Shown here: piece by piece, positions 11,904 to 49,535 of the stretch
How positions within the stretch are numbered: the stretch's first letter is position 1
Layout: each line of letters begins with the position of its first letter
Source of the DNA: Marsupella aquatica
Lineage: Eukaryota > Plantae > Marchantiophyta
Assembly: GCA_973895155.1 (NCBI GenBank)
Contig: OZ316893.1
Location: forward strand, 18,790,857-18,854,856
Length of the DNA: 64,000 nucleotides
Direction of reading: 5' to 3'
Translations under genes and position numbers: made by a program
Notes under the pieces: generated by a model
What the model saw: only the letters and a program-made list of their open reading frames with translations
Told to the model about the DNA's origin: nothing
Database searches by the model: none

Positions 11904-11917
11904 CGTTATCAGCACGA
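11904..11917 (+). promoter_or_regulatory. Primer-binding site complementary to the tRNA-Ile anticodon arm (half-tRNA primer)
   Basis: CGTTATCAGCACGA directly after the LTR; reverse complement TCGTGCTGATAACG resembles the tRNA-Ile anticodon stem-loop. Confidence 0.75.
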
Positions 11918-23379: not shown

Positions 23380-23396
23380 CCCGGTTTCTACTAGTG
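23380..23396 (-). repeat. CACTA terminal inverted repeat (one end); predicted 3-bp TSD TTT
   Basis: CACTAGTAGAAACCGGG on the minus strand, exactly at the homology breakpoint between the two Sola2-like copies. Confidence 0.8.
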
Positions 23397-24647
23397 TTTG
23401 TAATACCTAGTACCTAGTATTGTCTAATATTTACCATGGGTCATGAAGTATAGAATCCAATGGGTTTGATTAGTATGGACATTAGCCGTTGATTAATTTT
23501 GATGGTTGCACTTGTTTCTCTTACCATGCAGGTGATGATGATTCCCTCTTTGGAATTGAGTGGATGCAATACATAATAGGTGGACAAGATACAAGGACAG
23601 AGCACGCTGCTGCAGTAGCCAGAAATAGACAGGGGACATGAGACCATAAATTTATAGAGGCTTGGACTTGTCAGATATACACAATTAGTTTAGTGAAGTA
23701 CTTAGTCAATGCAGGACCATTTTTTCACAGTATATATACGGCAGCCATGTTGTTAATGGAAGCTTAGGTTTCCTTGCCATGAGACACATTCAAATTTGAA
23801 AATCAAAATATCTTTCATCGGACATGATTGAACAAGTGTATGTTAAAGTTTTTCTCTACTCACAATGGAATGAATGGTGTATGTTCAACTTCTTCTATAG
23901 TGAGTGGTAGGATGATTCTTTCTTTTGGGGCACCATTGCCTAAAGAAAAACTGCGTAATGTTGGACTAAAAGGTCAAGATAGAAACGCCTGAGTGGATAA
24001 TGTCATAACCTTGCATCAAATGAAGTGAACAATTTGTTAGACAGAATGGTTGCACCTGTTTGTTTGGAAACAGTTGCCTCAAGAACTAAGTATACAACCG
24101 GTGCCTCAAGAGTGACCAACTTAGTATGTACAACTCGGAACTCGTGCCAAGACTGGTGCCTCTAGAAGAACTAAGTATTCGTACAACAACCTACATAAGG
24201 TCACAACGCAAGCTTTGCAATGAGGTGTCAGTAATATTTTGGATTGTTGTCAACGCAAAGCTCACTCATTGTATCTTATTCACAAAAAATACGAGTGCAC
24301 TCAGACAATAAGTGTTTTGCATGCTTTGAACAGTCACTCAATTTATTTCTGCAAGACTTCTCCTTTGCAAGGTAAATCCTGTATCATAAGGTTACAATTT
24401 TGTACCATAAGGAACTCTTGGGGCTTGTAGCAAGATGACTTTGAAAATTGCCAAAATTAGCTGCGCAACTCTGTTCCTCTACATTTCCCAACACAACAAA
24501 ATCTGTGCTCCTTCTATAAGAAGCTCTCTATTTCTCCTGATGACGAAGTCCAACCACAATGTTCTCCAATTGATCTAACAGGACAGATCTACTTGGTATT
24601 GTCGATTTTTCTTCCAGGGTTGACCGCGACCTAGATAATCTCACAGA

Positions 24648-25142
24648 CTATGGTAAGGCCACCCAACTATGGGTAGAAATCCCAAGTACAGACACAATCT
24701 TCACCGACAGTACCCCGTCCTTCACATGCAGAACCACAGCGCATCTACGACATTGCAAGGCTACAGCTCGGATATAATCAAGTTGCTCCTGCTCAATGCA
24801 AGCTCTCAGCTCCGACGGTCCTACACCCAACCACATGGATGCACTGTCGCCAATTTGAGCTCGAATAGGCGTTGCCTGCCCAAACACCGCATCCACGATC
24901 ACAACTTCAAAATTGTATGCATCAACACCCTCCACCACGTGCCCACACACCTCACCTCCAAGCTCCTTTGATAGACCGCAACAGCCTCCATTTCCTAGCT
25001 GATGTGGGCATGATTTATAAGCAAAGCGCTGAGGATGGGGGAAGTTAAACTCAAAATTCACAACATGAACCACAACGTCATAAAATGAAGTAGTCTGCTC
25101 TGCTTCAATGGCCCTTTCCACTTCGCTCAAGGGAATCCCCAT
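24648..25142 (-). CDS. RPA70 C-terminal-like (Zn-ribbon OB-fold) ssDNA-binding protein, 164 aa
   Basis: F.YKSCP...C.......CGH....Y.F.V.I.D......IRA.IGDSA...LGV resembles Rep_fac-A_C. ATG at 25142 follows an acceptor at 25166-25167. Paralogue at 40309-40809. Confidence 0.6.
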   Translation of the reverse strand: MGIPLSEVERAIEAEQTTSFYDVVVHVVNFEFNFPHPQRFAYKSCPHQLGNGGCCGLSKELGGEVCGHVVEGVDAYNFEVVIVDAVFGQATPIRAQIGDSASMWLGVGPSELRACIEQEQLDYIRAVALQCRRCAVVLHVKDGVLSVKIVSVLGISTHSWVALP

Positions 25143-25269
25143 TCTGGTGCCAAGGTAGTTCAAACCTGCAAAACTGCAAGCAATGACATTTAAATCAGGA
25201 TTTTGATACCTCGTCTCATACCATATTCTGTAGGGGGTCATACAAACATCTTACGCCTTACAGGAATTC

Positions 25270-25880
25270 AATGTAGTTCATCAGAGTATTACAATAATAA
25301 CCAGAGGTATGTATTGAGCTAGTACTCAGAGACATTGGACTAATTTCCAGAGGTACCAGGCTAATACTCCAAGGCATTAGGCAAATGCTCAAGGTATGGC
25401 ACTAGCTAATACTCAGATAATAATATAATACACAAAGGTATGGCACTAATACACAATGGTAGTATACTAATACAAAGAGGTGTGGCACTAATACTCACGG
25501 TACTAGAGTAATACCCTGAGGTATTATGGTAATACCATGAGGTATTGCGGTAATACCCGGAGGTATTTATGGTACTACCAGAAGGTATTATGGTACTACC
25601 CGGAGGTATTATGGTACTACCCGGAGGTACTTGACTAATACCCGAAGGTACTCTACTTATACCCGGATGTATTTGACTAATACCTTGAGGTATTGGAGTA
25701 ATACCTGGAGGTATTTGACTAATACTCGGAGGTATTGGAGTAATACCTGGAGGTATTTGACTAATACCTGGGGATGTACTAGTATAATACCCGCAGGTAT
25801 ATATATAATACCTTAGAAGTATTATAGTACTAATCAAACAGAGGTGTGGGACCAATACGCAGAGGTATTGCATTAATACC
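25270..25880. repeat. About 21-bp period array of palindromic AATACC-N4-GGTATT units
   Basis: For example ctaataccttgaggtattggagtaatacctggaggtatttgactaatactcggaggtattgg. Confidence 0.9.
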
Positions 25881-26010
25881 CTTGAAGGGTGTTGAAATTA
25901 AGTCAAGACAATGTAGTAATGCAGCAGCAAATGAGTATAGAAATTTACCATTGCCTCGAATCATTGACATAGAGACTTATTTCTGTCCTATTAAAGTTCA
26001 CCCGCCTCAC

Positions 26011-28596
26011 CTATTTCTGCTTCCTAGTAGCACCACGAGTCCCTCTTCCTCGTCCTCTTCCTGGTTTAACATTTGCAACAGACTTTAAGACAACACTATC
26101 ACCCACTTGAGAGCCAGCCCCGGAGCCAGCATTCAGTCCCAATCCTGGACTGATAGCACCATCACCCTGCAGTGATTCCTGAGCTGTAACTTTAGATGAG
26201 GCTGTGCCAATCTCCCCTGCCTTTCGCTTCCTTGTACACAGACCCTTACCCGTCTCAAAGCCAGGCTCAAAGTCCCCACTGACATCCACAACAGAAGGGG
26301 AATTCCCCGTAATCTGAGTTACCGAACCGGGTTCTAGAGACTTGGCACCCTTCTCAACCTTCACAATGGACAGGTCAATGGATGGATCATTCAATTCTCC
26401 CTTGGAATTCTGGACAGAAGTCTGCTCTCGAATGTCAGTACTAGTTGAGGACTTTTTGTGGGCTTTAGAATTTCTGAAGAGTTCATTATGCACATGCATA
26501 GCTTTACCAACAGCTTCGTGATATTCTATTAACTTCTTCACACTTTCCTGCAAGGCAAATCCATATCCCAAAATCAGCAAATAAATTGACTACTACCAAT
26601 GCACAACAATTTAAGTGACCAGGTTTAGTGTTGTACCTTTGAATAGAACTTGGTCACTTTCTTGTGCTTCACGGCTTGCTTCTCTCTCCTTGCCTTTAGA
26701 CTCAAAGCCTTGTTACAATACATATCACTCATGCTCTTCCGAAAAGAGATGGATTGCTCTTTCAAACCCAAATCATCTACTAACTTCACTATATCTGGAT
26801 GGTCCACCTGAGATGAACCCCATCACTCTAGCCAGGATGGATGAAAGAGTTCAGCACAAGCTAAACACTTTGGGGATTTACTCTCACCATTTCAAAGCAA
26901 GGGGAACAAACAACTTGGATGATAGCAATGTCCACAAGGTGTGGGAATCCAATTGCTACAAAAGAAGCCAAGACTGCAAACAGGGCATTCAGAAATGGGG
27001 AAAAAAGTTTCCTCTATCTGTGCAGGACAAAGGATACTAACAGGGCATACATAAACTGCATCACATGCACTCAAGTGCTCCTTAAGTCTACTGCATTCTA
27101 CACTAAGCGCATCATAGGACTCTGTCAGTCTTTTGGCTGTTTGTTCTAGCTTGTGCGAGGTTTGTTTACGATACACCTCATCATCGTCCAGCTGATTCAA
27201 CTCAGTCATCTTAACCTGGGCAAGTGAAATTAAATCATTGCGCTTTAGCTTTTCAGAAGCCAAACTGTTTTGCAACATATTTGTTTTGTTGCAACACTCC
27301 AGAAACTTGTCTTGCAATCTCTCACAAAGTGCCTGCACATGTCCCAACCAGCACAATGGGCTTTAGTGTGATAGATTATTATCAAGCAAGTTAAAAAAAC
27401 ATTCAGCAAAAATGACATGATCAAAAATGTATTAATGTAGATTTCGGAAACAAAGTCAATCACATGTTTACCTCATCTTCAGAATGCTCTTCGTCTGGCT
27501 CTTGCAACAATTGCAAATCCTCAGATATTTGAGCCTGCTCTGTGACCTGAGCTTGAATGTCCCTCTGTAGGTTGTGAATGGCAGCGCTCTGTTCATCCTT
27601 CAACACTTTCAAATTTGACAAAACCTTTTCAATTGCATTGATTGTAGCAGTAGCTTCATTCTGCTTTGTTGTGAATTGAATGGCATCCTCAGTAACCTTC
27701 TCCATTTTAGGGCCAAGCTCTGCAAGACTGGCCTCCACTATCTCCAACATGGATTCGAGAAGCGCATGCTTCTGATTTGCAACTGGTGTGCCAGTACTGA
27801 TTTTCGGAAAAGCTTTCAAACTATTTTGTGGGGACAGTTTGCCTAGCTGAGAAAGGGACTGGCCTTGCTCTTGCTCAATATCCCCTCTCGCCTCTACTTG
27901 TAAGACTGTAATTGGCGATACAACATCTTGCTGTGGCTGGTTCACGTTCTGACTATATGAATCAGGACCTAGGGGTTCAGGATTGGATGACTCAAACTCT
28001 GAGTTTGACGGTTTATTCTCCAAGTTTAGAGGTGCTAGACCAGGTTGTGCGCCACTCACAACAGATGCTATTTCATTGAAGAGGTCTAGAGGAGGGATAT
28101 ACTTTGTGTCGACCCTCTTCCAGGGTGGCGAGTTTCTATCAATGGGAGCCTTTCGCACAAACCTCAACCGAAGTTGCCCTCTGTGCTTGTCTGCAGCACA
28201 AGCTGCCCAATTCACAGGTCTTCTCAATATGCGCTCATAATACAGACCATTGGCAACCTCCAAAGTGTATGGCTGGAACTTCCCGATTCCATCCAGTGCA
28301 CAGGTAAGCATGGCAATGTCGTCTGCAGGAATCCCCTTAATGCCCTCCTTGTAGCCATTCTTCCCAGACTTGCTCCCAAAATACTCCTCCAACACCTCAG
28401 CGGATACATCGTCAGTTGTGAGTTCCTTGGGAATCCTTCCCACATTGGGCAAGCCAATGACGTTGTGGAAATGATCGACGTCCTTTGCGAACTCATCAAC
28501 TGTCCAGTCTTCTGGTGAGAGAACCTTCACAAGACTCTTACCTGATTTAGGTGGTAACTTGTGACTCACGGACTTCCCAGATTTTTCAGAAGACAT
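26011..28596 (-). pseudogene. Multi-exon cargo gene: conserved N-terminal domain, coiled coil, RING-H2 finger, basic RG-rich tail; nonsense codons in the RING exon
   Basis: ORFs 27460-28596, 26892-27356, 26625-26807 and 26011-26580 with GT/AG junctions. CPVC...PCGHCYHPSC...*...KCLAC. Paralogue at 42539-44664. Confidence 0.7.
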
Positions 28597-29855
28597 ACCT
28601 GAGCAGCTTGAGTCTCGGCTTGAGTTCTCCTAGCTGGCAGCTCCAAGGATCCAACAAACTACTTAGGTGCAAGCGCGTACATACTGTGCGACTCCGAGTC
28701 CCTTGAACCTCCTTCTGCCTAACGAAACAAGAAGTTAGAATTATTTTGTTGAATCATTTGAATGAACAAACGTCATTACTAAGTGGCCAATTGTTATGAA
28801 GAGATACTCAATTTCAAGTGACCACAAATATCTAATAAGGAATCTGACCAATGTGCGCAAGCTCTGCAATCGAGTGACAAGCTTGAGAAATCTTTAAACA
28901 ATGAACATGACGCTCTATGAAGCGACAATCTTGACTCTAAACTGTAGTTGACGGGATTTAACATTCAATGTTCAAGAATATTGTATGCTAGCTAAGTGAT
29001 AGCAATCGGGGTCCAACTGCCCTAGCCGCCCAGGTTCACCTTAGTCGCAAGCTGCGCCACTCCAAGTCGCTCCCTCTCTCATCCTAAAGATGCAAACATC
29101 AAAGTTGAAAGGTGCATGTTGAAGTTGAACGTCTACCGAAGTTGAAGTACTTTGGGACGTGACTTTCTAACCTCAAAACCAATCAAAATGACATTCAATC
29201 AACAAACATTTGACAAGGAAAAAAGCTATAGAACACTGACCGAGGAAGGCGACTGTCACCACAAACATGCTCTGCAATCCAATGTCAAGCAGTCTTCCTC
29301 CAATCGACGCGACGCCGAGCTTGCAAGAAATGATCTCCACCTTGTGGTCTACATGCTCCAGTCCGCAACAATTCTGCAACTGAGCACATTGAAAAGACTC
29401 GATTCCACAAAGAAAAGTGCATCCACAGACGAACGCCAATGTTATGTGTGATTGCCCCGCTAAGCTACGGGCAGGATTGCTGTTCCTTACGGGAACGGTT
29501 GAGATCAACATTCTTTAAGGATTTGAAAACCATAGAGCGGGCCACAGAGTCAAGGCGACGAGTGCCCCCGCAAAGCGATGGTCGAGATCTCTACTCGTTA
29601 AGGGAACGGTTAAGATTCTACTATGCTAAACTGGTACATCCAATTTCAAATCACAAAGTAAAATGTGAAAACAAGTAGAGTACCTCACGGATTTTTGCTC
29701 TCAACCTCCATCCACGTCACTATACTTGCAACAAACTTGCAACTAACTATCCCCTCATCATGATTGGTTTAGAGGTATTGAGTAGTACTACCGTAGTGGT
29801 ACTAAAAGTGGTATTATTTTGCTCATATTTGCCCCCCTCTAGCTTGCTTTGAGCC

Positions 29856-31426
29856 AGAAGGTATACAGTACTGTGGAGGCTTTCATTAAGCATGATTTCT
29901 ATGCAAGATGGCAAGGAGAACAATATCAGAATTGTTTGAAGACATTTCAGAAGGGTACAGTCGTTTCCTCAATAGATTTTGCCGAGAATTACACTTTTGC
30001 AGTACAAGATGAGGTCCAGAGTTTTCACTGGGATAATCATCAGATTACAATACTTGTGTTGATCACATACCGTCATCAGCATGATAAGGAGGAGGATGAC
30101 CCCATTGTGTATGACTCCCATGGTAAACGAATTACCAGGTTCATTGAAGCTGATTACCACTTTTTCATTTTCGACGACAATAGTCATGACACCTTTTTTG
30201 TCCAACATTGCTTGGACTTTCATTGGGGCTGGATGCAAGAGTAGGGTTTCCTTGTCAACAACCGTATCATGTGGTCTGATGGGTGTGCAGCCCAATTCAA
30301 GGCTTGTCAACCGTTCTCATATGTAGCCAAGTACTACAATGAATACGGAGCAAGGATGATGTGGTGTTTTCATGCCTCAGGGCATGGGAAAGGAGTACAG
30401 GTATATGTTGCATTCTTTGACTACAGTTTTGAGCCGTGTTTTATGCATGCATGCACTCTACTATGCTTGCAATCATTTTCAATTATATTGTACATGCATT
30501 TTACTTTTCTCTAGTGTGCATAATATCTTACTATGATTGTTTGTACTGTCATATGTACTTATTTCATTCCACAGGATGGTCTTGGAGGTGGACTGAAGAG
30601 TGCCCTTCGAAAGGAGCAATTACGAACAAAAGGAGGGCATCCAATGGAGGGTGCAAAGGATGTTGTGGCATTCTTGAAAGAACGCTTTTGCCTGGGGAAG
30701 GAAAGGGAGTATGATAAGAAACAAGGAGTTCGACGTTTCTTTTGGGAGATAGGAGTGCAAGAAGTTCAGAGAATTCAGGCAAATGAATGCTTGCCTATCA
30801 AGGGTATTAGGTAGATGCACTATTTTCTGGGGTACAGCAAGAAGAATCCGATGATGTTGAAATGTCGTGAGCTGGCATGTTTTTGTGAGGATTGTGTGGT
30901 TGATGCATAGAATCATAGCAATTGCGAGAATCAAGCATGGGTCAACCCATGGGATGTTGACCATGTGTTTCCACTGCAGCCAATTGAGATTGCTAGTATT
31001 ATTCAAGACATGCATGATGGCCTAGATGCTAACAATTGTGACTATGAAAATTACCTTGGAGATCTGGTTGACGTTGGTGACTACTTTTCTGTTCTGGCTA
31101 AGGAAGGGAACATTTGGCATGCAGAATTTTATATTTTGCTGTGCATAAAGTTGGCTACTATTGTTGAAGCAGACTTCACTGATGATTACGGTGCAAAGTT
31201 CTTGATTGGTGATAGAGTGTTGGCTGGCACGTGGTATCAACAGTATGGTAGGTTATCGGATTATTGCTTTGTTAGATATGAGAAGGCTAGCTTGAGTTAT
31301 GTGGATGTGTCCTCTGTGGTACACATCAAATTTGGCCTTGTACCAACAAAGGTTGTGAGCGGCTCACCAGGATTCAAACTTTCACCAAGCACCCTAGATG
31401 CAATTTTGTGTTCAACAGAAAGGTAG
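29856..31426 (+). pseudogene. Sola2-like DDD transposase, 5' part missing (interrupted), with nonsense codons
   Basis: FIKHDFYARWQ, IDFAENY...QDEVQSFHW...QITI, DDNSHD, WSDGCAAQFK, ASGHGKGVQ|DGLGG (intron 30401-30574), C-terminal ACFCEDC...C. TAG stops at about 30242, 30812 and 30908. Confidence 0.75.
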
Positions 31427-31709
31427 TCATTCTGAATGATGTATGATTTCAATTTTCATTGTATGATTTCAATTCTGAAGGGTTTCTAATATGTACAGTT
31501 TAATACTAGTTTAGTAATTGGTCCTTTGAGTTGAAGTACAGTTCAGACCAGTTTAGCATCTAATGCGAGTGCATTTGTTGAGTTCAGGGAAAATCCTTCA
31601 GTGAGTACAATGAATTTGTATGGGTAAGATCACCCGCAATTCTCAAGGACAGGTAAACACACAAGATTCATAGTTTGACCTCATTATATAATACTTGGTT
31701 TCTTTGTCA

Positions 31710-32160
31710 TTAATACTATTTGCGTCTTACCCAATACCTAGTCTGTAGTACTTAATACTTCTATAGTACTCAATACCCAATACCTACTTCAATTCATAAT
31801 ACTTAATAATACTTTAATTAGAGTATTTGCCAATACCACTCAAGAATGCATAATACCACTTAAGTAGTACCCTAATACCAATTTGTAATACTAATACTCT
31901 ATAGTACCTAGGTGTACTAAAACAATACTCGCTAATACTTTCAATACCTATTCAGTAATACTGAATACTCAATAATACTTTCAATACCTAATACTACATA
32001 ATACCATGTAATACCATAAATACCTAATACCATAAATACCCAATACTATGCAATATTGTATAGTACTACTAATACCAAACACTCTATAATACGTACTAAT
32101 ACTTCCAAGTACCTAGCATTTGGGTAATACTAATACTTTGTAATACCGAGTACCTAGTAT
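31710..32160 (+). repeat. Unidirectional low-complexity array of TAATAC(C/T) motifs
   Basis: Dozens of taatac(c/t) copies at about 10-13 bp spacing. Confidence 0.85.
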
Positions 32161-32784
32161 TGTGTAATGTTTACCAGGATTGGGTTATGAAGTATAGAAT
32201 CCAGTGTGATTGATACAATATATATGGGCATTAGCTGTTGATAAAATTTTGATGGATGGTTGCACTTGTTTCTCTTACCATGCAGGTGATGAGTCCCTAG
32301 CTCTTTGTAATTTTGCTTGGATGCAAGATACAAGGATAGAGTTGTTGTAGTAGCCAAAAATAGACTAGGGAAGTTCACAAGACCAAAGTTGAAGCTCGGC
32401 TTAGATTTCACAGTTAGTTTAGTGAGATACGTAGTCAATGTAGTGAACCACTGTCTCAGTACAAGCATGTTGTCAATGGAAGCTTACGTTTCCTTGCCTT
32501 GAAAAATTCAAAAACGCATTGAAATTGAAACACGTTGAATCTTGTGTAATATCAAAATATCGATGGAATGAGTGTATGTTAAAGTTATTCTCTAGTCACG
32601 ATCAATGGAATTAATGAGTGTGTCCAACTTCTTGTATGGTCAGTGGTAGAATGATTCATCCTTGCATGGGATGAAGTGAAGGATATGTCCATTCATGGAC
32701 CCATATTGTTGTTTGTATAGCTCATGCTGTCTTTTGAGATCTGCCTTGGTCTGATTTCTTTATTTCAATCATCAAAAGAGGAGC

Positions 32785-35700
32785 TATGATAGGATAATGA
32801 ATAGTAACTATCAATAGAATGAGTAGGGTCATGGTACATATAGGTGTGTTGGGTGACCAGTTGGTCCGGTCAATGGGTAGAGTCTAACATTTCCCCTTGT
32901 CTATATAGTGACAACTATGTAGACAATATAGACTGGACCTATCATACCATTTTAATAGAGTATACATGATATGAGTACAAGTGAGGTAGACTGTCTCGTT
33001 AAAAAACCTTTATCAACTCTAGTTAAATAAAAACTCTACCGGTGTAGCAGAGAAAAAGTTTGAGTGCTAAAGGAAAAAGAGTGCAGCCTAACAGTCCTCG
33101 TCGTAATAAGTATCAATATTATATAAAGTCAGATGCTATAGTAAATCTAGTTTCAACATCTGTCTCAACAATAAGTCGTCAGTATCATCAGTCATGGTGT
33201 AGCAGCATCTCCATGGTCATCATGCATCGTACGCTCCGTAGTCCAATCGCCTGGCAGTGCCGGTGATGAATGGCCGGCAATAGTGATTTGGTGAAGAGAT
33301 CCACATAGTTGTCTGCACTTGAAATCTGTAAAATGTTGATCTCTGTTCCATGTAACTCATGGGCGTAGAAGAACTTCGGAGCTATGTGCTTCACTTGATC
33401 GCCTTTGATGAATCCTTTCGTGATCTGCTGTATACATGCTGCGTTATCCTCAAAGATATTAGTAGACTTCGTTAGTGTTGGTAGGCCGTATTTAGTATTG
33501 ATGTGATTTATAAAAGATCATAACCAAACGGCTTTGTGACTAGCCTCATGTAGAGCTAAAATCTCTGAGTGATTCGATGAGGTTGCTATTACGGTCGGTT
33601 TCACGCTTTTCCAAGAAAAAGTGGTACCCCCTATAATAAAAACATATCCGGTTTGGGATTTTGCGGTGTTAGTGTCGGAAAGATATCTGACATCCGCATA
33701 TCCTATGAGTTCATGGTTTGCACCGAATGGGTAAAATAACCCGGTATCAGTGGTGCCACGCAGGTACCTAAATACGTGCTTAACTTCGTTCCAGTGTCTG
33801 TCTGTGGGAGTTGCACTGTGCCTAGCTAGTAAGTTAACTACAAATGCAATGTCTAGTCGGGTCTGATTTGCTAAATACATTAATGCTCCTATCGCGGAAA
33901 GATATGGAGTTTTCGGTCCTAATAGTGGTTTGTGTTCTTCGCGCTTGCAAAAAACATCAGTAGTGTTTTCTAATGAACGTACCACCATTGGAGACGTTAA
34001 TGTGTGTGCTAAGTTTATATTGAACTGTTTTAGGATCTTTTTAGTTTGTGTTGTCTGATGGAGCATCATGCCAGTAGGCAAGGTCTCCAGTTGTAAACCT
34101 AAACAAAAGTTTGTATGGCCAAGGTCTTTCATCTAAAATGTTGTTTTGAGACGGGTAACAGTATCTTCTGTAATTTGGGGTGTCCCAAATATGTTTAAGT
34201 CGTTGACATAAATAGAGACGATGACATATTTATCATCCATATGTTTAATAAATAAACATGGAGTAATTACATCATGGGAAAAACCCATGGAAATCATCTC
34301 ATTAGTGAATCTTTGATGCCATACTCTGCCACTTTGTTTCAGGCCATATAATGCCTTCAACACGCGGATAGCTAGTCCGCGGTGAGTATGCCGTATGGCT
34401 AACATAGGGGTGTCATTTTGATGAGTTACATGTGTAGATAACATATGAGGTGTACTCGATGTGTTTGGTTGATAATCTTATGTAAATATGGAATATACAA
34501 TGTAGTGCCTTGAGCTAAAGCTCGACGACATTCCTCCAACTCGGGAGGTAATTGCATGTATAGACAAGTGTCTAAAGTTCCATATAGATATGCGGTCACG
34601 ACATCCAGTTGTCGCATCTTAAGTTTATGGAAAATGGAAAATCCGATAAGGTATTGAAATGTTGTGTTGTCCATAACCGGTGAGTAAGTTTCATCATAAT
34701 GGATTCCCGGTTGTTGGGTGAATCCTTTCCCTACCAGACGTGCTTTGTAGCATACAACCTGACCTTTATCATTTCTTTTGCGGACGAAGGTCCACTTGTA
34801 GCCAATGAGGTGTACATCTCTCGGTGTTGGCTCAACTGGGCCAAAAGTGTGTCTACTTAGTAGAGAATCTAATTCGCCATTGATAGTTTTTTGCCATTCA
34901 GGCCAATCTGGTTTGTTTTGGCATTCTAATATGGAAATTGGTTCAGGTGTATCGTCATTGATATGTGTTGCCACCATTAATGCAAAAGCATCATCTATTG
35001 AAGTAGTAGTTCTATCCCACATCGCACCGGTGTGTGCGTAGTGGATAGAGATCTCTTCATGAGTTGTGGAGTCAGTATGATCTACGTAAGGTGAAGGAGG
35101 GATAGATGAACCACGCCTTCTTGGTTGTTTATCTTTTGATCCCAAGGGTCTGCCACGTTTGGCACGAGGTTGGGATGTACTTGCTGGCTCTCTTGATAAT
35201 TCAATGCGAGCGGATGCTCTCGCAGCTGGAATATGTGAGCGGGTAACTTGTGATGTATCGACAAAAGCGTCAGGAAATTCTTCCACAATCTTGTGAAGTT
35301 GAAAAATTTGCCAAACTTCTTTCTCCCCCTGATTTGTTCTAAGGTCTTGCCAAAATGGTGAATGTCTCTCCCACTCCAAAGGTGGTAGTGGGTGTTCAGG
35401 GGTTATTAATGGTGGATAAATATGCTCATCAAAATGACAATCTAAAAATCTGGCTTTAAAAATGTTGCCTGTTGTAGGCTCCATATATCTGATTATGGAC
35501 GATGAGTTGAATCCGATGTATATCCCCAACTGTCGTTGGGGTCCCATCTTGGTTTGTTTGGGTGGAGTAATGGGGACCATTACTTGACATCCAAATGAAC
35601 GAAGGTGGGATAGATCGGGTTTGATACCGTTAGCAATTTGGTATGGGCTATAAGTATTAAAAGTTGATGGGCGGTATTGAATTAATGCGTTAGCCTGTAA

Positions 35701-38700
35701 TATGGCATGTCCCCATGCTGAGACGGGGAGTTTCGACTGCATTAGTAGTGGGCGTGCAATCAGCTGAAGGCGTTTAATGACAGCTTCAACTAATCCATTC
35801 TAGAAATGCACGTGGGGTACAGGATATTGTACATCGATACCTAGTGATGTACAGAAGTCATCAAATGTTTTGGATGTGAATTCCCCTGCATTGTCAACCC
35901 TTAGTGTCTTAATGGGGTGATTGGGAAATTGTGTCTTCATGCACAAGATTTGCGCCAAGATGCAAGGCATAACCATGTTCCGCATCGAAAGCAGGGTCAC
36001 ATTTGACCATTTGGTTGATGCATCGATCAGTACCATAAAGTAGCTGAATGGTCCGCTCGGTGGGTTATTTGGCCCGCAGACATCCGCATGTATGATGTCC
36101 AAGAATTTTGGTATCTTGGTTGGCAATTTTGATGTCGTGGGCCTTGTTATTAGTTTGCCGCATGAGCATGCGGTGCATGGAGTGCTAGCTGGAATGTGGC
36201 GTATGTTAGTTGGAATGCCTCGTGAATTCTTAATAAGTTTGCTTAGCATGGATTGATCGGGGTGGCCAAGGCGTGCATGCCAAAGCGCGGGCAATTCACT
36301 TGGTTGTGCATTGTTATGCAAATATTCAATTTGAGTTACATAAAACCCGCATGGGTACAAGAAAAGAGTCTCTTTAATGATTTTCCCCATAGGGGTATTT
36401 TCAACCAAATGGATTATTTCCTGGTCTTTTGTATCGCCTGTTTGGACGTGGAGTCCATTTGCTCGTATATCCCTAAAGCTTAGAAGATGACGGGTTGCAT
36501 TCGGGGCGAAGATAGCTGATTCTATCTGGATTTCTGTACCCTACGGAAGTTGAATAGAAGCTAGGCCGAAGCCCTCTTCTATCTGGCTAGGACCATTGAT
36601 AGTGGTCAGTGATCTACTTGAAGGTGTGATCTTGTGGAAAAGAGTTCTATCCTGAAGGATAGTATGAGTAGTCGCGCTATCAATAATGCATGTGCTGGGA
36701 CTATTTAGGTCCGGGGTTGTGGAGCTACTTGCCACTAAATATGCCTCGGGTTGTGCAGGTGTGTCTGAAAAATCTTGAAATAAGTCTCTGGATTCCATAA
36801 ACGCCCCGTGGGTCTCACGGGGTGGTGCCCTAGGGTTTTGGCCATCTTTTAGGGATTGTTGGTATAAATCTCTAAGGTACTGTGGAATCCTACAGTTGCG
36901 GGCCAGATGGTTGGTCATGCCACATTCGTGGCATCTTGGTCGTTCTCGCTATGGTCGAGGTTGAGGCCGATCACTTCGGCGGTCATTCTGGTATCTCCTT
37001 CCACCTCGGCCGCGTGTGACGTTGTTGCAAAAACTCTGTTGTTGTGGGCGCCCATTTGGGCGATCTCTAAAGGCCTGTCGAAAGGTGCCGCATTGCTGGT
37101 GTTGGTTGAAGAAACTCCCCCTGTTGAGGGTGTTTCTCCTATTACCATTCTTGGTGCGCTTGTCATCCTACCTTGATGTGGAGGGTCCAGCATTGTCGAT
37201 GTGATGGGTTTCTCTCTCTGGTCCTGGGGGTAGTGTGCCCGCAGGACGTTTCCTAGAGTTAACTAAAAGGAGCTCTTGGTTCCTTTCTGTTACTAGGAGG
37301 TGGGCGATGAGCTCTGAATATTGTCCGAACTTCATGTTCCGGTACTGGGTTGATAGTAGTACGTTCGAAGAGTGGAACGTGGACAAGGTTTTTTCTAGCA
37401 AGTCCTTGTCTGCAACTGGCTTGCCACAGAGTGCAAGGGTTGAGGTGATTCTGAATAGCTCACTATTGTAGGTTGAGATGATGTAAAATCTTGGACCTAT
37501 AAGTTTAGCCATTCTTGGCGGGCTCTAGGTAGTTCGACTAATTTTTGGTGGTCGAATCGGGTCTTAAGCGTTGTCCATAGCTCGCGAGGGGTGGTTAGGT
37601 GCATGTACTGTCTTTGCAAGAACCTATGGATATGGCGTCAAAGAAATACTAGGGCCTTTGATTCATTGGCCTTGGTTAACAGGTCTGGTTGGGGTTCGTC
37701 TGCTAGTATGGGTTGAGCTATCCCTATAGCCGGGAGTAGGGTTAAAGAGGTCAGGTTCTCCTTGAGGTTCATGGACCACTCGAGGTAATTGTTACCATCA
37801 ATTTCTAAAGTTGGGAAAGTCAATTTCTCCAGGTTGGCCATCTAGGGTTGCTATGGCATTATTTTCTAAGCTCCTTTTTGATAGTATTTAGGGCTTATAG
37901 AGTAATAGCCATAAATAAAAGTCGACAAAGCATATTTATGCGGCATGCAAAGTGGGACTTGGTGTAGAGAGCATGCAAATTTGGAATGCAGTTTTATGGT
38001 TTGCACTTAGGATTTAGGTTTTCCTTGTTATTTGGTTAACTACAAAGTTTTCTTTGTATGTGTTGTTTCCTTTGTTAAATTATGCAGTAATGGATTTTTG
38101 CAGTTTGTGCAGTTATGGGTGATTAGTGCACATGTGGCTTTGTAAAGTTAAGTTTCCTTTGTTATAGTGTGCATTTATGAAGGGATGCACTTAAGTTGTT
38201 AAGTGCACATGAATACACAGAAAACAGGATTGCCTTGTTGAAATTTTCACTTAAGGAGGGTGAAGCGGTTAGGGGATTTATCTCAACATTTTGTCGATGG
38301 GTTGTTTAGCAATGTTGTTCTTTCCCTTCGAACAGCCCCGTTCTCGCCTCCTTGCCTCGTCCTTCAGGTGTTGTTTTGAATCTCGGTCAATTGGCTCTCC
38401 TTGGATTCTTCAACTTGCTTTTTGTGTTTCTGTTCGCAATCTGCTTCCTATCTACTTCTATTTCTCTTAGTCTTCTTCGACAAGATCTCAAGTTTTGTTC
38501 ATGCAGCCCTTTTCAACAACGAAATATGCATGGGGATCCTTCTCATCAAGCAGCCCCGGATCCCTTGTCTAACCGATCCTTTCTTTTCTGCTCTCTTGTT
38601 CTTTGTGTTCTCTATGTCCTTATCAATTGTTGATCTCACGAGCTACACTCCGATGAGGAAAAGCTCAATGTCATTCGGATATCTGGTTCAATTTTGCTTG

Positions 38701-39398
38701 AGTGATCAATTTCCTCTCTATTTGCGTATCTTCGTCCATCTGAGCTGCGTTCTCTGGTTCTTGTTTCAATAGGTCTACTTCTTCTGTGTTTAGAGTCTAC
38801 TTCTCAATTGCTTACAAACTCGATTTGCTCTCGAACTCGATTGATTGATCGTTCCTTCTATTTGATTGATTTGTTCTCGGGAGGAATCGTCTTCTGATGG
38901 TCTGCAATCTGATTGAAAGAGTCTATCCGTGGGTGACTCTCCATATGCGGTAGAATGATAACTCTGTTGTAGATTTCTCATTTCACCTGCAAACTCTTTG
39001 TACATCGCCCTGGATAACCGAATCTCGAGTCGGACAGTGGAGAGTCCGTGATTGTAACAAATTGCTTTGAATCTTCATAATGAATTTAATCCAATCACCT
39101 CAATCTTAATTCACCTTCCTCAGTTCCTGAAATTCATTATCGGAGGATAAGTGTTGGACATCTCCTTGGTGAGCCAACTTTGACGGACCTGGCTCGGTGC
39201 TCCCTTTTTTCAGTCACTGGTATTTCTCTTCTCTCTTGTGCCATAGCTTTTCGCTCTCCTGTGCTCTAAGCTGGGTGAGTCATGCTGATAACGTATGATA
39301 GGATAATGAATAGTAACTATCAATAGAATGAGTAGGGTCATGGTACATATAGGTGTGTCGGGTGACCGGTTGGTACGGTCAATGGGTAGAGTCTAACA
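32785..39398 (-). mobile_element. Decayed Bianca-like Ty1/Copia LTR retrotransposon (Copia B)
   Basis: 105-bp LTRs at 32785-32889 and 39294-39398 with 3 mismatches. TSD GGAGC at 32780-32784 and 39399-39403. PBS cgttatcagcatg on the minus strand; PPT aaggggaaa. Confidence 0.95.
33188..37841 (-). pseudogene. Copia B gag-pol, fragmented by stops and frameshifts
   Basis: Fragments homologous to Copia A: LEKLTFPTLEIDGNNY, IIDSATTH, HADVCGP, RVDNAGEF, KARLVGKG, IYVND, SSNHSE, DLFTK. Confidence 0.93.
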
Positions 39399-40308
39399 GG
39401 AGCATGATTGTTTCATAGTATCAGTGTGTACCCTCATTCACTTTATCTATCCTAAGTGAGTGTATATACTGAAATCACTTAGAGCATGAATGGCATTTTC
39501 TATTCCAAGGTTAACTTTGTACTATGATCCATTGAACTGTTGGGCCTGTAGACTTTAGTTTCCATCTTCGCATGTTAAAAAAACTACTCTCGCAATTTGT
39601 CAAATAGGCAGCTCTATTTCTCTTCTATTCCTAACACATCAAGATTTGTGCTCCTTCTATGAGAAATCCTCTATCTCTCATGTACTTAAGGCTTGCTACA
39701 CAAGTCTTACAAAGTCCTTTAGTTGGTCCAAAAAGACAGCTGGTATTGTAGGTCGTTCCATAGGAGAATAGGCTATTGTCATGTATGCTATAATTCAACG
39801 GCAATTAAGACAAAGGTGCGCAAAAGCAATGTGGCTCATATGTGGTTTGTACACAATCACTCAATTTATTTAATGTGCAAGCTGGACTTTAGCTTTGTAC
39901 AGTGCATCCAGTACCCACAGGATACAAAATTGATTGATTGTAACTAATCCAAGCAGAAATAGAAAGAACCACACTGAACTATTGGGCCTGTAGAAAAATC
40001 TGGCCACAAAATCTGCATGCAAAAACACTACTGCAAAAACTGCAGCTTCGTCTCTACAAAAACGTTCTCCTCGGATCAACTCATTCCTAATCTAAAACCG
40101 CATGCAGAAACACTACTGCAAAAATTGCAAAAACTGCAGCTCTATCTCTACAAGTCCCAAAACATTCTCCTAAGATGACCTCATTCCTAATCTAAACCTT
40201 GATGACGAAGTGCAACTAAAATACCCTCCATTTGGTCCAAAAGGACAGATCCTCTTGGTACGAGGGATTGTTCCACATTGGTGGACCTTGGGTGGGACCT
40301 AGCTAGTG

Positions 40309-40809
40309 TCACACTAGCAGGCCAGGGGACCCAATATGGGTAGGAACCCCTAGGACAGACTCAATTTCCACTGACAGTACCCCATCTTTTACAGTCAAGG
40401 CAGCCGAGCACCTCCAACAGTGCAAGGCAACAGCCCGGACGTAGTCCAACTGCTCCTGTTCAGTGCAAGTTCGTAGGTCTGAAGCTCCTAGCCCCAACCA
40501 GACTGAAGCGCTATCCCGAATCTTAGCACGAATGGGGGTTGCCTGCCCGAATACCGCATCAACAATGACAACATCAAAACCATATGTATCAACACCCTCC
40601 CCTGGATGGCCACACACCTGCCGGCCAAGCTCCTTTGATGAGCCACAAATGCCTCCATGTCCTAGCCGATGTGAGCACGCTTTGTAAATAAAGCGTCGAG
40701 GATGGGGGAAGGTAGAATGAAAGTTCACAACATGAACCACAACATCTTGAAATTTAGCAGGCTGCCCTGCTTCCACAACCTACTCGACTTCTATCACAGG
40801 AGTCCCCAT
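40309..40809 (-). pseudogene. RPA70C-like OB-fold gene, copy 2 (premature TAG at codon 10)
   Basis: Clear paralogue of 24648-25142 (DVVVHVVNF..FPHP.RF.YK.C.H.LG.GG.CG.SKELG..VCGH). ATG at 40809 follows an acceptor at 40830-40831. Confidence 0.6.
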
Positions 40810-40959
40810 TCTTGTGCGTCAACAAAATCCTGCAAAACTACAAGTCCAATACTCAAATTAATACTCAAGGATTCCAGATGGATATTCAATGACGATGCCT
40901 TGCATACAAAACATAACAGACAATCAACTATGTAGTGCCTGGTAGTTCACAAATCCTCA

Positions 40960-41320
40960 AGGTGTAACTACACTGAATAATACTCAAAGGTATTACACTA
41001 ATACTTGAGGGTATTCAAAACAATACTCCAAGGTGTTGACATAATACCCCAAGGTATTGACATAATACCCCAGGGTATTGGGTTAATACCCCAGGGTATT
41101 GGTATAATACCCCAAGGTATTGATATAATACTCTACGGTATTGGCATAATACTCTGAGGTATTGACATAACTCTTGAAGGTATTGTGATAACACCGCGCG
41201 TAATTGACTATACCTGAAACTCTTACAATAACACCTTATTGTATTAGACCAATACCCAAAGGTATTAAACTAATACTTTGGTATTAAAGTAATAGTCACA
41301 GGTACTAGGTAGATACTCTA
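40960..41320. repeat. About 21-bp period AATACC-N4-GGTATT palindrome array, copy 2
   Basis: ataataccccaaggtattgacataataccccagggtattgggttaataccccagggtattgg. Confidence 0.9.
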
Positions 41321-41640
41321 TCCTGTCATGAAATCACAGCTAGGTCCTAATTACCTCAGTCTGGTCGTGTAAAGTGAGTATTCAAATCTAAATACTCACA
41401 TTGATGTGCATGTATGAAATGAGTGAACCCTAAACCAAATGAAGAGCCTGAGAATACATAGGAATTCACTACAGGATTACATAGGAATTCACTAAATAAA
41501 GGATGAGCAATAGGAGAGTGAAAATTTACCATTGATGCATCCACATTGGGTATTTAGATTGACATCTAGCGTTCATGAATGCTCAGAGGCAGACAACAAT
41601 GTCAACATAGTAGTGAGTCCTATTTAAATTCCCCAGCCTC

Positions 41641-42518
41641 GAGAGCTTATAAGATGATCAGGACTGAATGCAGCGACACCCCCAGTCTGAACAGAACTTG
41701 GGGGATTTCCAAGACAGCGGGGGAGTGGAATGTAGGATGGACTGGTATATGGAGATCTGGGTTGACTATGAGGGCTAAGACTTTTCTGTGGAGGATAATT
41801 GCATCTGGTCTGTATACTGGAGTGAGGGCGATAAAGATAGGTAAAGGAACTGGTGAGTGCAAGCTGTGTCCTGGGATTCTAGAAACCATTCCCCACCTCT
41901 TCATTGACTGTGCACATGCACAGAAATGCTGGGCTTTATGTGCGGGATGTTTTGATGGTGCATTTGCGGATCGCTTTGGAGGCCTGATTGGGATGCTTGA
42001 CTCTGCTTTCGGAAAGAACCCATGTAAAGTAGCAAAATTGTTTATGCTATACCAGATCCTCTGGACGCTGTGGAATGGCAGGAACGAGCACATGTTCAAG
42101 ATAGAGGGAACCAGAAAGCTGGACCTGCGCTTTATGCTCTCTGAAGTGGCGGACCATGTCTCTGCTGTGATACTCACCTTACCGGCTTGTAATAGAAGAA
42201 CGAGGCTACTTAGGGCCAAGGAGATGGTAAATAGGGAAAGGGTGCTATGGATTAACCGGAGGGATATCTGGATCACTTCAGGTTAGAAGTTGAGTTTGTT
42301 TGAGGTTGATGTTTTGTAGATGATGAGGGTTCTGTCTATCAAGGGTACTTGGATAGGTTGATGGGCTGCCCCTGGATGCACTCTGGGACTTGAGACACTT
42401 GCACTGATGGCTGTTTGGAATACTGGTGTCCCCTTTGCTGATGCTTCTAACTTCTGATTGTTCCCCTTGCTGCGGGGCTTTCGTGGCTCAAATTTATAAA
42501 ATTAAAATGGAGTTAAGG
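41641..42518 (+). mobile_element. 5'-truncated L1-type LINE (zf-RVT C-terminus and 3' UTR)
   Basis: KTFLWRI...CKLC...ETIPHLFIDC.HA..W zinc motif. 15-bp TSD aaattccccagcctc at 41626-41640 and 42519-42533. Absent from copy 1. Confidence 0.88.
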
Positions 42519-42538
42519 AAATTCCCCAGCCTCACCTA

Positions 42539-44664
42539 TTACAACTTCCTAGCTGATCCACGACCTCTTCCTTGTCCTTTTATAGATGGTTTAACCTTTT
42601 CAACAGACTTTAAGGCAACATTATCGCCCTTGTCATGAGCAGGATCCAATCCTAGACTGATACCAACACCCCTTAACTTCCCCTTAGCTTGAGAGGAGGT
42701 TGTGCAATTCTTCTCCTTGGCCTTTCGCTTTTTGCTACTCCCCTTACAAGACTCAGAGCCAGGCTTAGAGTCATTAGAGACATTCTCCACTTGAGTGACC
42801 GAACCAGGTTCTGGAGCAACCCCCTTTTTGACCTTTACAATTGAGAGATTCACCTCGCCCTTGGACTCCGGGGCTGAAGTTTGTGTTTGAACTCCAGTAG
42901 GAACTGACTTGTCAACTTTCGAGACCCCCAACAACTCGTGGTGTACATGCGTAGCTTTACCAACAGCCTCATGATATTCGATAAACTTCTTCACACTTTC
43001 CTGCAGCGCAAAACCAAATCCCACAATTAGCAATTGACCAATATCTCCGCTAATACCAATGTACACCAAAGTAGATCATACTATGCCAACAACTTGAGTG
43101 GTCACCAGGTTTAGTGATGTACCTTTGAATATAACTTGGTGACTTTCTTGTGCCTCAAGGCTTGATTCTCCCTCCTTCCCTTTAAATTCAAGGCATTCTC
43201 GCCGTGGGGTTTTTGCAGCTTATTTTATTTTATAAAAACCCCCCTTTCAAGGAAATTCAAGGCATTCTCGCAATATAGATCACTAAGGCTCTTCTGAAAA
43301 GAGGTAGATTGTTCTCCCAAACCCCAATCATCTGCTAGCTTCACTACATCTGGATGGTCCACTCGGGATGAACCCCAGAATTCAGCCAGGCTGGATGAAA
43401 CACTTTAGCATAGGCTAAACACTTAGGACCTCGCAACCCTTCGCAAAGTGCCTGCACATGCAAGTCCCAGCCAGCACAACAAACTTTAATGCACAACGGA
43501 TTGTTATAAGCAACTTCAAATGACATTTACCTCATCTTCAGATTGCTCTTTGTTAGGATCTTGCAGCAGTTGCAGATCCTTAGATACTTGAGCTTGCTCT
43601 TTGACCTTATCATGGATGCGTCGCTGTAGGTCGTGAATGAGATCACTGAGTTCATTCTTTTGCACTTTCAACCCTGACAATGTCGTTTGAATTGAGTTGA
43701 TTCAATCAGTAGCCTCATTCTGAGCTGCTCTGAATTGAATGGCATCTTGTGTCAACTTCTGCATTTTGGGGCCAAGCTCTGCAAGACTAGCCTCCACTAC
43801 CTCCAACATCGTTTCAAGAAGTGTATTCTTCTGGTGCGGAACTGGTGTGCCAGTAGTGACTCTAGTGCAAAGTTTTTTTGTTTGAGCTTGTGGCGAACCT
43901 ATGAAACTATTACCTGGTGATATTTCATGATTTGGACCACCTACCTGACATAGGGACTCACCTTGATCTTTCTCATTTACCTCTAATCCTAAGACTGTAA
44001 CTGGCAATATCGCATCTTGCTGCGATTGGTTCATGTTTAGCGGGAGGTTCTGACCACTCAAATCAGAACCCAGGGCTAGGTTAGCCGGTTTCTCCTCCGT
44101 AGGTGATTGACAATGTGCTCCACTTGCAACGGACTGTATTCTATTGAAGAGGTCTAGAGGAGGGATATACTTTGTCTCAATCCTCTTCCACGGTGGCGAG
44201 TTTCTATCAATTGGAGACTTCCTTACAAACCTCAACCAAAGCTGCCCTCTACGCTTGTCTGCACCACAAGCTGCCCAATTCACAGGTTTTTTTAAGATCC
44301 ACTCATAGTACAGACCTTTGGCAACCTCCACAGTGTATGGTTGAAACTTTCTGATTCCGTCCAGCGCAGAGGTAAGCATGGCGATGTCGTCGGCAGGAAT
44401 CCCCTTAATGCCATCCTTCTTGTAGCCGTTCTTCCCGGACTCGTTCCCAAAATATTCCTCCAACACCTCAGCGGACACTTCTTCATTTGTGAGCTCCTTC
44501 AGAATCCTTCCCACATTGGGCAAGCCAAGGACATTGTGGAAATGATCGACGTCCTTCACAAACTCATCAACTGTCCACTCTTCTGGTGAGGCGACCTTTA
44601 CAAGACTCTTACCATGGGACTTTGGTGGTAGCTCGTGAGACTTTCCAGGAATTTTAGAAGACAT
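42539..44664 (-). pseudogene. Coiled-coil cargo gene, copy 2; most of the RING exon is deleted
   Basis: Paralogue of 26011-28596 (SPEEWTVDEFVKDVDHFHNVLGLPNVGRI...). Junction near 43437 fuses QALCE directly to PKCLA. Confidence 0.7.
43203..43252 (+). mobile_element. 50-bp retroposed insertion (extreme 3' end of an L1-like element)
   Basis: 19-bp TSD aaattcaaggcattctcgc at 43184-43202 and 43253-43271; ends in aagg like the neighbouring LINE. Confidence 0.65.
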
Positions 44665-45637
44665 ACCTGTGCGCTGTGTAGTTTGAGTTCTCCCAGCTGA
44701 GCCTCGCTCCAAGGTTTGGCAACAAACTATTTGGGCGCAACCCGCACTATGCAACTCCGTTTGATCGAGTCACTTGAAAGCATGTTACTCCAGGCATGCT
44801 TAGAGTCCCCTGTATCTCCCTTGCGCCTGAATTAAGACACAAGAATGTGAGTTCATTGTCATCTCATTTGAAAAGATTGACTGTTTGCCTAATCTGTGAC
44901 CTAGATCATAAAAGACATTCAATAAACAAGTGGGGAATAAAGAAATTAAGGGATAATCGAAGCAACTTTCCAAGTGAAGACCAACCATGCAGCAATCTTT
45001 GAGTCCTCAACTTCCAAAATTGTAGCTCACATGCATTATCAACTCGTCTCCATTACGCAAACAAGAACGCAAAAAGTTCCAGCGATTCAAATGTGTGAAA
45101 AAAAACTTACTACGTACGCCACAATGCAATGTCCTTCCCTCCCCCTTTTCCTCCCCTGCTACCTAATCAAGGATCACAATGTTGCGGTCTTCTCCAACTG
45201 GCAGCAAATTGTGCAACATTCAAACGTGACTAGCTATGAATCGCAACTTTCATTCAACGTGATAAAGCGGAAATAGCGCAACAGAAAGGAAGTGAGCACT
45301 TTGACGCGCCCAGACGATGCTATGGTCTGGATCTTGCTTCCAGCATAAACGGTCAAGATCCAACAATGCTACTCCCTCAACCACCACCATTGATCTTCTT
45401 TGCCACCACGGCACGGTTCAGATTTGTTGACCTTTCAAATTTGAAATGGCAATCTTGAGGTTACGGTACTTAATGTCTTTTGGCCCTTCCTCCCTCCAAT
45501 GGGATTGTACTTGCAACAACCTCCTCCCTCATCATTACAAGACTTGTACTACTAATAGTACTATGAGCCTTGTGGTAGAGGGTATTAGGAGGGTATTATT
45601 TTGCTCAAATTAGACCCCCTTTAGCTCGCTTTTAGCC

Positions 45638-48028: not shown

Positions 48029-49535
48029 AGTCGCGGAACTTGACTACCTTAACACTTAGCTCCGGTGTTGTTGACTCCGACGCCAAGCTCCCTTATGGTC
48101 CAGGCTTGGATACGCCATCCGGGGAGGACTTAGCATGGGGAGACTTGTGGGCAATGAGACGTGGCACTAGCAAAGGCAAGGAGCAAAACTGGTGACACAC
48201 ATTAAGGACTTAGGCTAGCTGAGAGCTGGTCGGGTCAAGGGGAAAAGGGGTCGGGTTCAAGGTCGACCGTCCGGACCCCCGGACAGACTTTGAGTTCTGA
48301 GGGCTTGAGTGTGAGCTCCTCTTGGGCCCAAAGCCAATGGAGTTGACGCCATGGGCAACGAGCGCTTGGGGCGTGAGTTATGGCTCGATCCGAGTTTGGC
48401 CGATTGGGGACCCCAAGCGGCGATGAGACCTGAGGGCCTAGGCATGAGCACTGGGTCGGCCCGATCACAACAGGCTAAGGCACTCCGCTTGCGGACGCCT
48501 AACAAGAAAGTTATGGGCGTTGCCAGTTGGTGGCGCACCCAGTTGGTGGCGCACCCAGTATGCGCGATAGGATCCGGGTTGGAGGCCAAAAGTTGAGGGA
48601 CCAAAGCTAGTCCGGGGGTGGCAAGTCTCCAAAAGCATATATGAGGGGAGTGGTGCCTCCCTGGGGGCCAAGGGCGAGCCGAAGTCATGAGCCGCGATGG
48701 TCGCGACACTAAGGGAAAGCGCCAAACGGAAACGACAATATCTTCCCAACGGGAAGTTCGTTGGAGAACTTCTTGGGTGCGTTGGAAAGATTTCAAGGAG
48801 GGCTACATCCTCTTGAGATCAACTGGGTATAGGGGTGCCATGGGTTCTCAAGGTTTGCAGGTGTTAGCTCGCCTGCTTGCCAAATTTTGCCGAACAACAG
48901 CAAAGCCGTGTTCAGTCTCCCAAGGGAGCTTGCGTTGGGGAGGAAAGGCCAAGTAAGCGTGGAGGTTGAGTTCCAAGGGTGCTTGGCCCCTAGACCATTA
49001 GTGGGGCGAGAACCAAGAGTTGGTTGCTAGAGTCGGGGCCATTATGGTCCCGACGTGTTGGGACAAGCTTTAGGACAAGCTACGCTATTTGGGCCATGAG
49101 CATGTCCTGGGGTCAGGGCGGTCAGTTGGTGATGGATAGGTACGAGGGGGAACCCGGGCCACGCCCAAGGAAGGAGCTGTTCTGGATGAACAGTGGGCGT
49201 GGGTTCTGGTTCTGGCTTATGGCATTGGGAAGACCTATCGCTGACCTACTTACCAATGTCTATTGAGCTTGAGTTAGGATGCTAGACTCGGGGAGTTCTA
49301 GACCCTGAAGGGTCACTTACCGAGATGCCTAGTTGCTTGTGCAGACAGTGAGGACCATTGAGTAGCGGTCGTGTTAGAGAGCAAGTGCGGTTTCGTATGG
49401 GAGTGGTTGCTGGCGGTGCAAGGGGCACTAGGTTGCTTGCTCAAGGTATTCCGTGGAGGCGTTCAGGCACCAGGGGCACTTAGGCGTGGGTGCCGGGATT
49501 GGTGAGGGCGCTGGGTGGCAAGGTCCACCACTACA
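48029..49535 (+). repeat. Putative 3' LTR (about 1.5 kb) of the Gypsy element
   Basis: Follows the PPT, starts agtcgcgg (degenerate TGTC) and ends in CA; partner LTR is not in the window. Confidence 0.6.

Follow-up and report, generated by a model that had tools for sequence, protein, structure and literature searches.

The stretch of the Marsupella aquatica genome analysed here (contig OZ316893.1, positions 18,790,857 to 18,854,856; 64,000 nucleotides, hereafter the window) raises the question of what kind of unit it carries twice, in diverged form, between 23397 and 45637. The initial annotation described two colinear units that share a gene for an OB fold with a Zn ribbon, a coiled-coil/RING gene, arrays and a common end. 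Self-BLAST bears out the shared units and sets the end at 46 bp. In the reading that we consider probable, a Sola2-type DDD transposon left both units as dead copies, one nested in the other; it moved by cut and paste and carried two extra genes, facing the transposase, as helpers. Coordinates are collected in Table 1.

The colinear blocks pair 23397-23924 with 32137-32663 (71% identity), 24538-25180 with 40200-40844 (the OB gene, 73%), 25994-26873 with 42519-43427 (66-81%), 27467-28672 with 43526-44740 (75%) and the shared end at 29810-29855 with that at 45592-45637 (87%). Copy 2 is the longer because a Copia element and a LINE (long interspersed nuclear element) fragment inserted in it; without them, it measures 6.4 kb from the transposase stop to the right end. 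The array that follows the transposase is reduced to about 34 bp in copy 1. No gene is intact in either copy, and both copies are dead.

The gene at the left of copy 2 encodes the C-terminal part of a transposase; the N-terminal part is absent from the window. It has the motifs DFAENY, DDNSHD, SDGCAAQFK and HASGHGKG, with DGLGGGLK downstream of a GT-AG intron, and by motif these agree with the Sola2 alignment in the accessible part of PMC3627910 (Additional file 10). The DDD residues and their motif context make the predicted transposase a probable member of the Sola2 group of the Sola superfamily, as first proposed. It matches P0005 (E 3e-21), which resembles Sola2-1_HM by eye, and it has 2622 representative homologs at E ≤0.001, the best named one being R1sor_010679 of Riccia sorocarpa (58%). 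In a tree of 179 transposase homologs alone, from which L035 was left out owing to length, it clusters with Riccia and Calypogeia proteins (support 0.994). No relatives were found among viral contigs. Neither the window pieces nor the 27 homologs scanned matched a Pfam family, in agreement with the excerpt of PMC5751038 on Sola transposases. None of the 38 window open reading frames (ORFs) scanned gave a Pfam match to RepHel, the gene type named beforehand as counterevidence. A Helitron was rejected on this result and because the flanks of the unit start with A, G or C instead of showing A/T insertion.

The right terminus, likely a terminal inverted repeat (TIR), shows that the unit moved. Its 22-mer occurs twice in the window, both times on the minus strand, where shuffles expect 0.01. 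We aligned contigs from four read-assembly runs (X1, X3, X4 and X5 included) to 29700-30000. Their matches stop at 29855 and then diverge, into one flank in X3 and one common to X4 and X5; in two further flanks, 1-3 bases agree with those beside the window end (one of the two is imperfectly aligned). There are six different terminus flanks in total, the two window flanks included, and a seventh (X1) has a degenerate end. In all four runs the transposase is also found uninterrupted and in frame at 29856, an empty-site allele from which we conclude that copy 1 jumped into the transposase of copy 2. Since the end meets differing flanks and copy 1 lies within the transposase of copy 2, the unit moved independently, as had been claimed, and tandem duplication was rejected. 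A host gene cluster was likewise rejected. The truncated ORFs that abut the termini do differ between the copies, but they are not the host genes they were taken for: one is the family's own transposase and the other a Ty3/gypsy RNase H-integrase-chromodomain gene.

The same observations bear on a segmental duplication in a transposon-rich region, with the transposase adjacent by chance. The region is indeed a nest of transposable elements, with CACTA, Copia, gypsy, LINE and Harbinger pieces, and a single end is visible. The exact end with several flanks, the empty-site allele, a contig that leads from transposase to cargo and a relative with matching layout (both below) largely refute this alternative, which we regard as very improbable.

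That transposase and cargo belong to one element is supported by three observations. The transposase runs into the rest of copy 2 with no junction that we could find, as originally noted. In X3, a contig (record 22) connects 31651-31791, via the array, with copy-1-type sequence at 23441; its short side has 99 letters. It has a 30-base overlap with another contig, whose match to 30868-31680 shows 40 differences and 17 gaps in 816. Copy-1 cargo thus seems to be accompanied by a transposase with about 95% likeness to that of the window. Because the cargo halves are nevertheless 66-81% alike, these sequences suggest that element halves may have been exchanged between copies. Finally, in a related locus, L027, the transposase lies between the termini. 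This locus is a complete but degenerate 13.1-kb element, from a TIR at 6874 (+) to one at 19954 (-), which encloses the transposase, a RING homolog and the N-domain described below.

L027 comes from a metagenome scan that yielded 131 transposase relatives, the best 80 of which were retained (68 distinct; L-numbered loci). A metagenome scan with the terminal pattern gave no matches, a profile of the two window ends gave nothing below E 8, and a blind search for TIRs with target-site duplications (TSDs) in 35 loci returned chance AT-rich pairs only. The relatives' ends were detected only by a motif widened with the published TIR of the Ceratodon Sola2 cluster_4006, which the window end matches at 14/19 bases in register in each copy (by eye; chance about 1e-4). 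A matrix from nine ends gave 124 matches above 11 bits, against 21 in shuffles; in L004, L032, L056 and L061 it also gave non-seed matches above 20 bits, at 2.9-5.9 kb upstream of the transposase. From these end-to-transposase distances we estimate that the intact window element was likely about 12 kb. Non-autonomous elements of 0.6-0.65 kb with Sola-type TIRs lie at L057:7578-8221, L060:4673-5325 and L061:16588-17201; exact 4-bp TSDs flank those of L057 and L060, and none were found at the L061 pair. Sola2 termini start with GRG as a rule. The window end starts with GGC. Among published ends, those of DFa and PPa elements do not all obey the rule (PMC3627910). The DDD triad, the TIR and the TSDs of relatives argue for cut-and-paste movement, in which the transposase would bind the TIRs and generate 4-bp TSDs as it appears to do in relatives.

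Accessory gene 1, modelled from GT/AG signals common to both copies, is predicted to encode a conserved helical N-domain, a coiled coil, a RING-H2 domain and a basic RG-rich tail. The C3H2C3 ligand spacing of the RING-H2 is present in copy 1, which upholds the claim of a RING-type protein; copy 2 has lost the RING exon to a deletion of about 437 bp. The zf-RING_2 match (E 0.01; 2e-4 in relative L047) is below the curated cut-off in both. Stop codons at 26892-26894 and further along exon 2 disable copy 1. Other copies carry sense codons at 26894, as they do at 30242 and 30908 in the transposase. The N-domain has no match in Atlas, and its model is all helical (predicted local distance difference test, pLDDT, 49; best Z 3.8). 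Protein homologs of gene 1 fall in two unnamed clusters (60-65%).

Related loci hold the same gene in the same place. The RING exon of the window alone found four distinct loci (E 2e-10 to 2.5e-5) and one profile round added six (E 7e-14 to 7e-6), where the best hit to reversed sequences had E 3.4. A RING homolog lies on the minus strand 5.0-9.4 kb downstream of the transposase in 12 of the 80 loci (10 distinct). When distinct loci with enough flank are counted, the RING gene is convergent to the transposase in 10 of the 20 relatives with at least 5 kb downstream and is found upstream in none of 26. The RING-bearing loci are spread across the sister clade of the transposase tree, and their TIRs resemble moss Sola TIRs. 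The N-domain is present in eight loci. Five carry it 0.5-1.0 kb before the RING (L013, L024, L027, L061 and L065), whereas L072, and L058 and L074 on the plus strand, have it without a RING match; L035 and L047 add weak matches. Gene 1 is probably an old, fixed second gene, positioned like mudrB of MuDR. Its fixed place and the selection on it, by analogy with MURB and VANC, suggest a helper role. Its most likely product would be a nuclear ubiquitin ligase that shields the element from host silencing or tunes the transposase, a reading to which we give somewhat less than an even chance.

The element could be real and its cargo nonetheless be host sequence that it picked up passively, in the manner of Pack-MULEs, and that plays no part in transposition. 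That every window copy is broken would fit such capture, as would an OB gene restricted to the window family, a slot content that varies by lineage and a RING gene not seen in half of the long loci. Against it, the comparison of copy 1 with copy 2 (two out-of-frame comparisons excluded) gives a ratio of nonsynonymous to synonymous substitution (dN/dS) of 0.19 for the N-domain (139 codons) and 0.23 for the OB gene (156 codons), at a cargo dS of 0.39-0.83; the place and order of the RING gene are kept across a deep transposase tree; and protein searches with either cargo gene returned no named host gene. We consider passive capture improbable, and both accessory genes likely to be the transposon's own helpers.

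Accessory gene 2, the OB gene, is likely RPA70-C-like, on weak but concordant evidence. The 164-aa ORF initially read as an OB fold ends at a premature stop; beyond this stop the frame stays open for another 39 residues, which copy 2 and P0006 conserve. The nearest named Atlas cluster is Rep_fac-A_C (0.92; 178 features). When the model was compared with 48,161 chains (VIA), ranks 1-6 went to Cdc13, RPA70-C and Teb1 OB-C (Z 4.6-5.3, root-mean-square deviation 3.9-5.1). The initial call of an RPA70-C-like fold is in this sense retained, weakly, and Foldseek returned nothing. Homologs of the protein form one unnamed cluster (87%).

The OB gene was found solely in the window family. It could be left over from a Helitron or another element that had inserted in the common ancestor of the two copies, with gene 1 alone a genuine accessory. 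RPA-like cargo is typical of plant Helitrons, AATAC arrays bracket the OB gene and relatives lack it. This alternative is quite unlikely, given that no RepHel match appeared in the window ORFs scanned, that the gene holds the same place under purifying selection in copies at dS 0.83, and that the array motif also occurs in the element's own subterminal region.

A donor-like GTGAGG follows the gene 1 stop in both copies (26005-26013, 42533-42541), and an acceptor precedes the OB start. From these signals, gene 1 and the OB gene may be transcribed together, in which case the 21-bp array would be intronic. An in-frame fusion of the RING and OB genes was rejected, as the phases do not fit.

In another lineage, the interval between transposase and gene 1 holds a different gene. 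A Pre-SET/SET gene lies there in L035 (7620-8571, -), L045 (8993-9936, -; SET E 7e-7, Pre-SET E 7.5e-4) and L067 (7912-8855, -); the latter two are collinear with L035 at about 83%, and the three may be orthologous sites instead of separate insertions. We take this gene to be SUVR-like. Nothing was recognised in the corresponding interval of L027. The interval probably acts as a slot that takes up DNA or chromatin domains of host origin: in the window family a likely RPA70-C-like OB fold, in L035 Pre-SET/SET. We hypothesize, with considerable doubt, that the OB protein attaches to single-stranded DNA or to RPA subunits where excision leaves a gap, and that it biases repair towards the sister chromatid as template; the element would thereby gain copies. 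A broader proposal is equally tentative: bryophyte, and perhaps fern, Sola elements could be an old lineage built on two genes, which has a RING ubiquitin ligase of its own and whose slot takes in exchangeable host chromatin and DNA-repair modules. The OB protein, with its predicted C-terminal helix, would mimic the RPA70 trimer core and steer excision-gap repair, the SET gene of the sister lineage would rewrite histone marks, and together these would form a counter-silencing and repair kit.

Several observations weigh against a helper-carrying transposon. No left end or TSD of this family occurs in the 64-kb window, and the TSD of L027 is imperfect (flanks AATC/AATT, a 3/4 match). The nested junction is covered exactly by one contig in X1 and one in X3; with 30 bases on the right side, each is one base short of the 31 per side that our bridging rule demands. 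The X3 contig has a depth of 36, against 197-393 for shared parts, which is compatible with several copies and gives no copy count. The RING-bearing loci are kin and not independent, such that p-values overstate the association; a RING match is lacking in 10 of the 20 long loci; and the N-domain stands on the plus strand, without a RING match, at L058:13633-13971 and L074:14187-14525, an inverted or different layout. The OB model is weak (pLDDT 35, best Z 5.3), the Atlas recognition score is 2030, below the 2300 mark, and searches by Foldseek, Pfam, PDB phmmer and PDB profile gave no match. An OB homolog was found in none of the 80 related loci, so the single-stranded DNA-binding protein first envisaged as a trait of the family at large does not hold as such. 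Pfam also found no OB fold in 150 of the 371 ORFs, plus 149 shorter ORFs, downstream of related transposases.

The repeat that bounds copy 1 on the left is likely the end of a CACTA element inserted in the array of copy 1. This likely large element spans 228-23396, with a transposase at 2705-5500 and its other end outside the window. Possible CACTA cargo includes a BRCT ORF (6510-7193), a PHD ORF (17806-18060) and, by eye, an F-box-like ORF (5827-6375). GC-rich ORFs at 8322-10486 (+) have a WASY..coiled-coil layout that recalls the NWA motif of gene 1, with no Pfam family. A young Copia element at 11706-17579 has identical 198-bp long terminal repeats (LTRs) and an open 1575-aa frame; in the Copia inserted in copy 2 (first LTR 32785-32889), both LTRs start with TA, not TG. 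Farther right lie a PIF/Harbinger transposase fragment (49463-50449, -) and a host gene with OBERON-like PHD and DUF7615 (56495-58852, +).

Table 1. Features of the two element copies and their immediate surroundings (window coordinates).
Feature	Position	Strand	Remarks
Copy 1, right (cargo) half of element	23397..29855		Left limit, CACTA end; right end within transposase of copy 2
OB gene, copy 1 (predicted OB fold and Zn ribbon, likely RPA70-C-like)	24528..25142	-	Premature stop 24648-24650
21-bp AATAC/GTATT array between cargo genes, copy 1	25426..25830		Array region 25280-25880
Accessory gene 1, copy 1	26011..28596	-	Predicted exons 27472-28596, 26637-27332, 26011-26547; ~785 aa
RING-H2 motif	26856..26987	-	C-x2-C-x13-C-x-H-x2-H-x2-C-x14-C-x2-C
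Right terminus (likely TIR), copy 1	29810..29855	-	Stops exactly at 29855
Copy 2, 5'-truncated	29856..45637		Order: transposase, array, spacer, OB gene, array, accessory gene 1, right terminus
Sola2-like DDD transposase, C-terminal part, copy 2	29856..31426	+	Intron 30401-30574; stops 30242, 30812, 30908
AATAC array 3' of transposase	31700..32170	+	32 AATAC vs 2 GTATT
Copia LTR element within copy 2	32785..39398	-	105-bp LTRs, 102/105 identical; 5-bp TSD GGAGC
OB gene, copy 2	40190..40809	-	Stop at codon 10; frameshift near 40335
21-bp AATAC/GTATT array, copy 2	40977..41280		Array region 40970-41320
LINE 3' fragment (zf-RVT) within copy 2	41579..42286	+	E 1.5e-11
Accessory gene 1, copy 2	42539..44664	-	Stop codon at 43702; loss of RING exon near 43428
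Right terminus, copy 2	45592..45637	-	
High-depth repeat	22500..23396	-	Starts with CACTAGTAG at 23396; outside element
3' portion of Ty3/gypsy pol (RNase H, integrase, chromodomain)	45638..47591	+	Target of copy 2; outside element

To our knowledge, plants have few Sola elements, and these have received little study. If the RING gene is conserved, it would explain why moss and fern Sola elements reach 10-13 kb, a size so far listed unexplained. It would also extend the short list of known transposon accessory proteins (MURB, TnpA, VANC) by a ubiquitin-ligase class. Should a DDD transposon carry an RPA-like gene, self-steered repair of the excision site would become a testable idea, and the recently active Ceratodon relatives offer a workable system.

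Among known systems, the Sola2 families of Repbase, as far as the accessible part of PMC3627910 (Additional file 10) covers them, share with the window element DFAENY..QDE.Q..HW, D..HD, SDG..Q(Y/F)K and HGK..DG.GG..K, the DDD triad and a short TIR beginning with G. Unlike them, the window element falls in the plant clade of the tree, has an intron before the third D and carries two convergent extra genes. Sola2 was initially thought to comprise transposase-only elements, a view that does not stand. The Sola2-Fanzor1 elements DFa-1/2/3 and PPa-1/4/5 of Dictyostelium and Polysphondylium (PMC3627910, section 11 and Additional file 11) carry cargo, and Fanzor-carrying Sola2 also appear in the available portion of PMC13565253. 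The former share with our family a transposase in the 5' half and cargo in the 3' half, with near-identical 5' halves on different 3' halves (PMC3627910); they differ in their Fanzor1 nuclease cargo and AT-rich TSDs, whereas our six flanks show no AT-rich preference.

Large plant Sola elements have also been described. Table S2 of PMC12973397, in the part available, lists four active clusters, 4006-4009, in Ceratodon, Rhytidiadelphus and Cibotium (9.9-11.2 kb, TIR 26-32 bp, TSD 4 bp) with Sola transposase domains alone and describes no cargo there, and PMC10741241, in excerpt, gives moss Sola elements of 2-9 kb, some above 15 kb. The literature searched, within the portions of these sources at hand, yielded no instance of a Sola element with RING, OB or SET cargo; bioRxiv 2021.09.26.461848, PMC4455052 and PMC7466625, to a similar extent, add nothing further on Sola cargo. 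Bao et al. 2009 and the Repbase entries, which lay outside the search, may mention extra ORFs. Like RPA70 domain C and the RPA-like genes of Helitrons, our OB gene likely encodes an OB fold into which a Zn ribbon is inserted, followed by a predicted C-terminal helix; here, in contrast, the domain is single and stand-alone, has no sequence-level match and sits on a DDD transposon and not on a RepHel element. MuDR with MURB and VANDAL with VANC are likewise plant TIR transposons with a lineage-specific second gene that aids transposition or opposes silencing. They belong to another superfamily, show no sequence likeness that we could find, and in the available parts of PMC12973397 and PMC13547354 no RING is reported for them. 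Large plant Sola elements and Fanzor-carrying Sola2 were already known; what appears to be new is the RING/OB cargo and the convergent placement of the RING gene in relatives.

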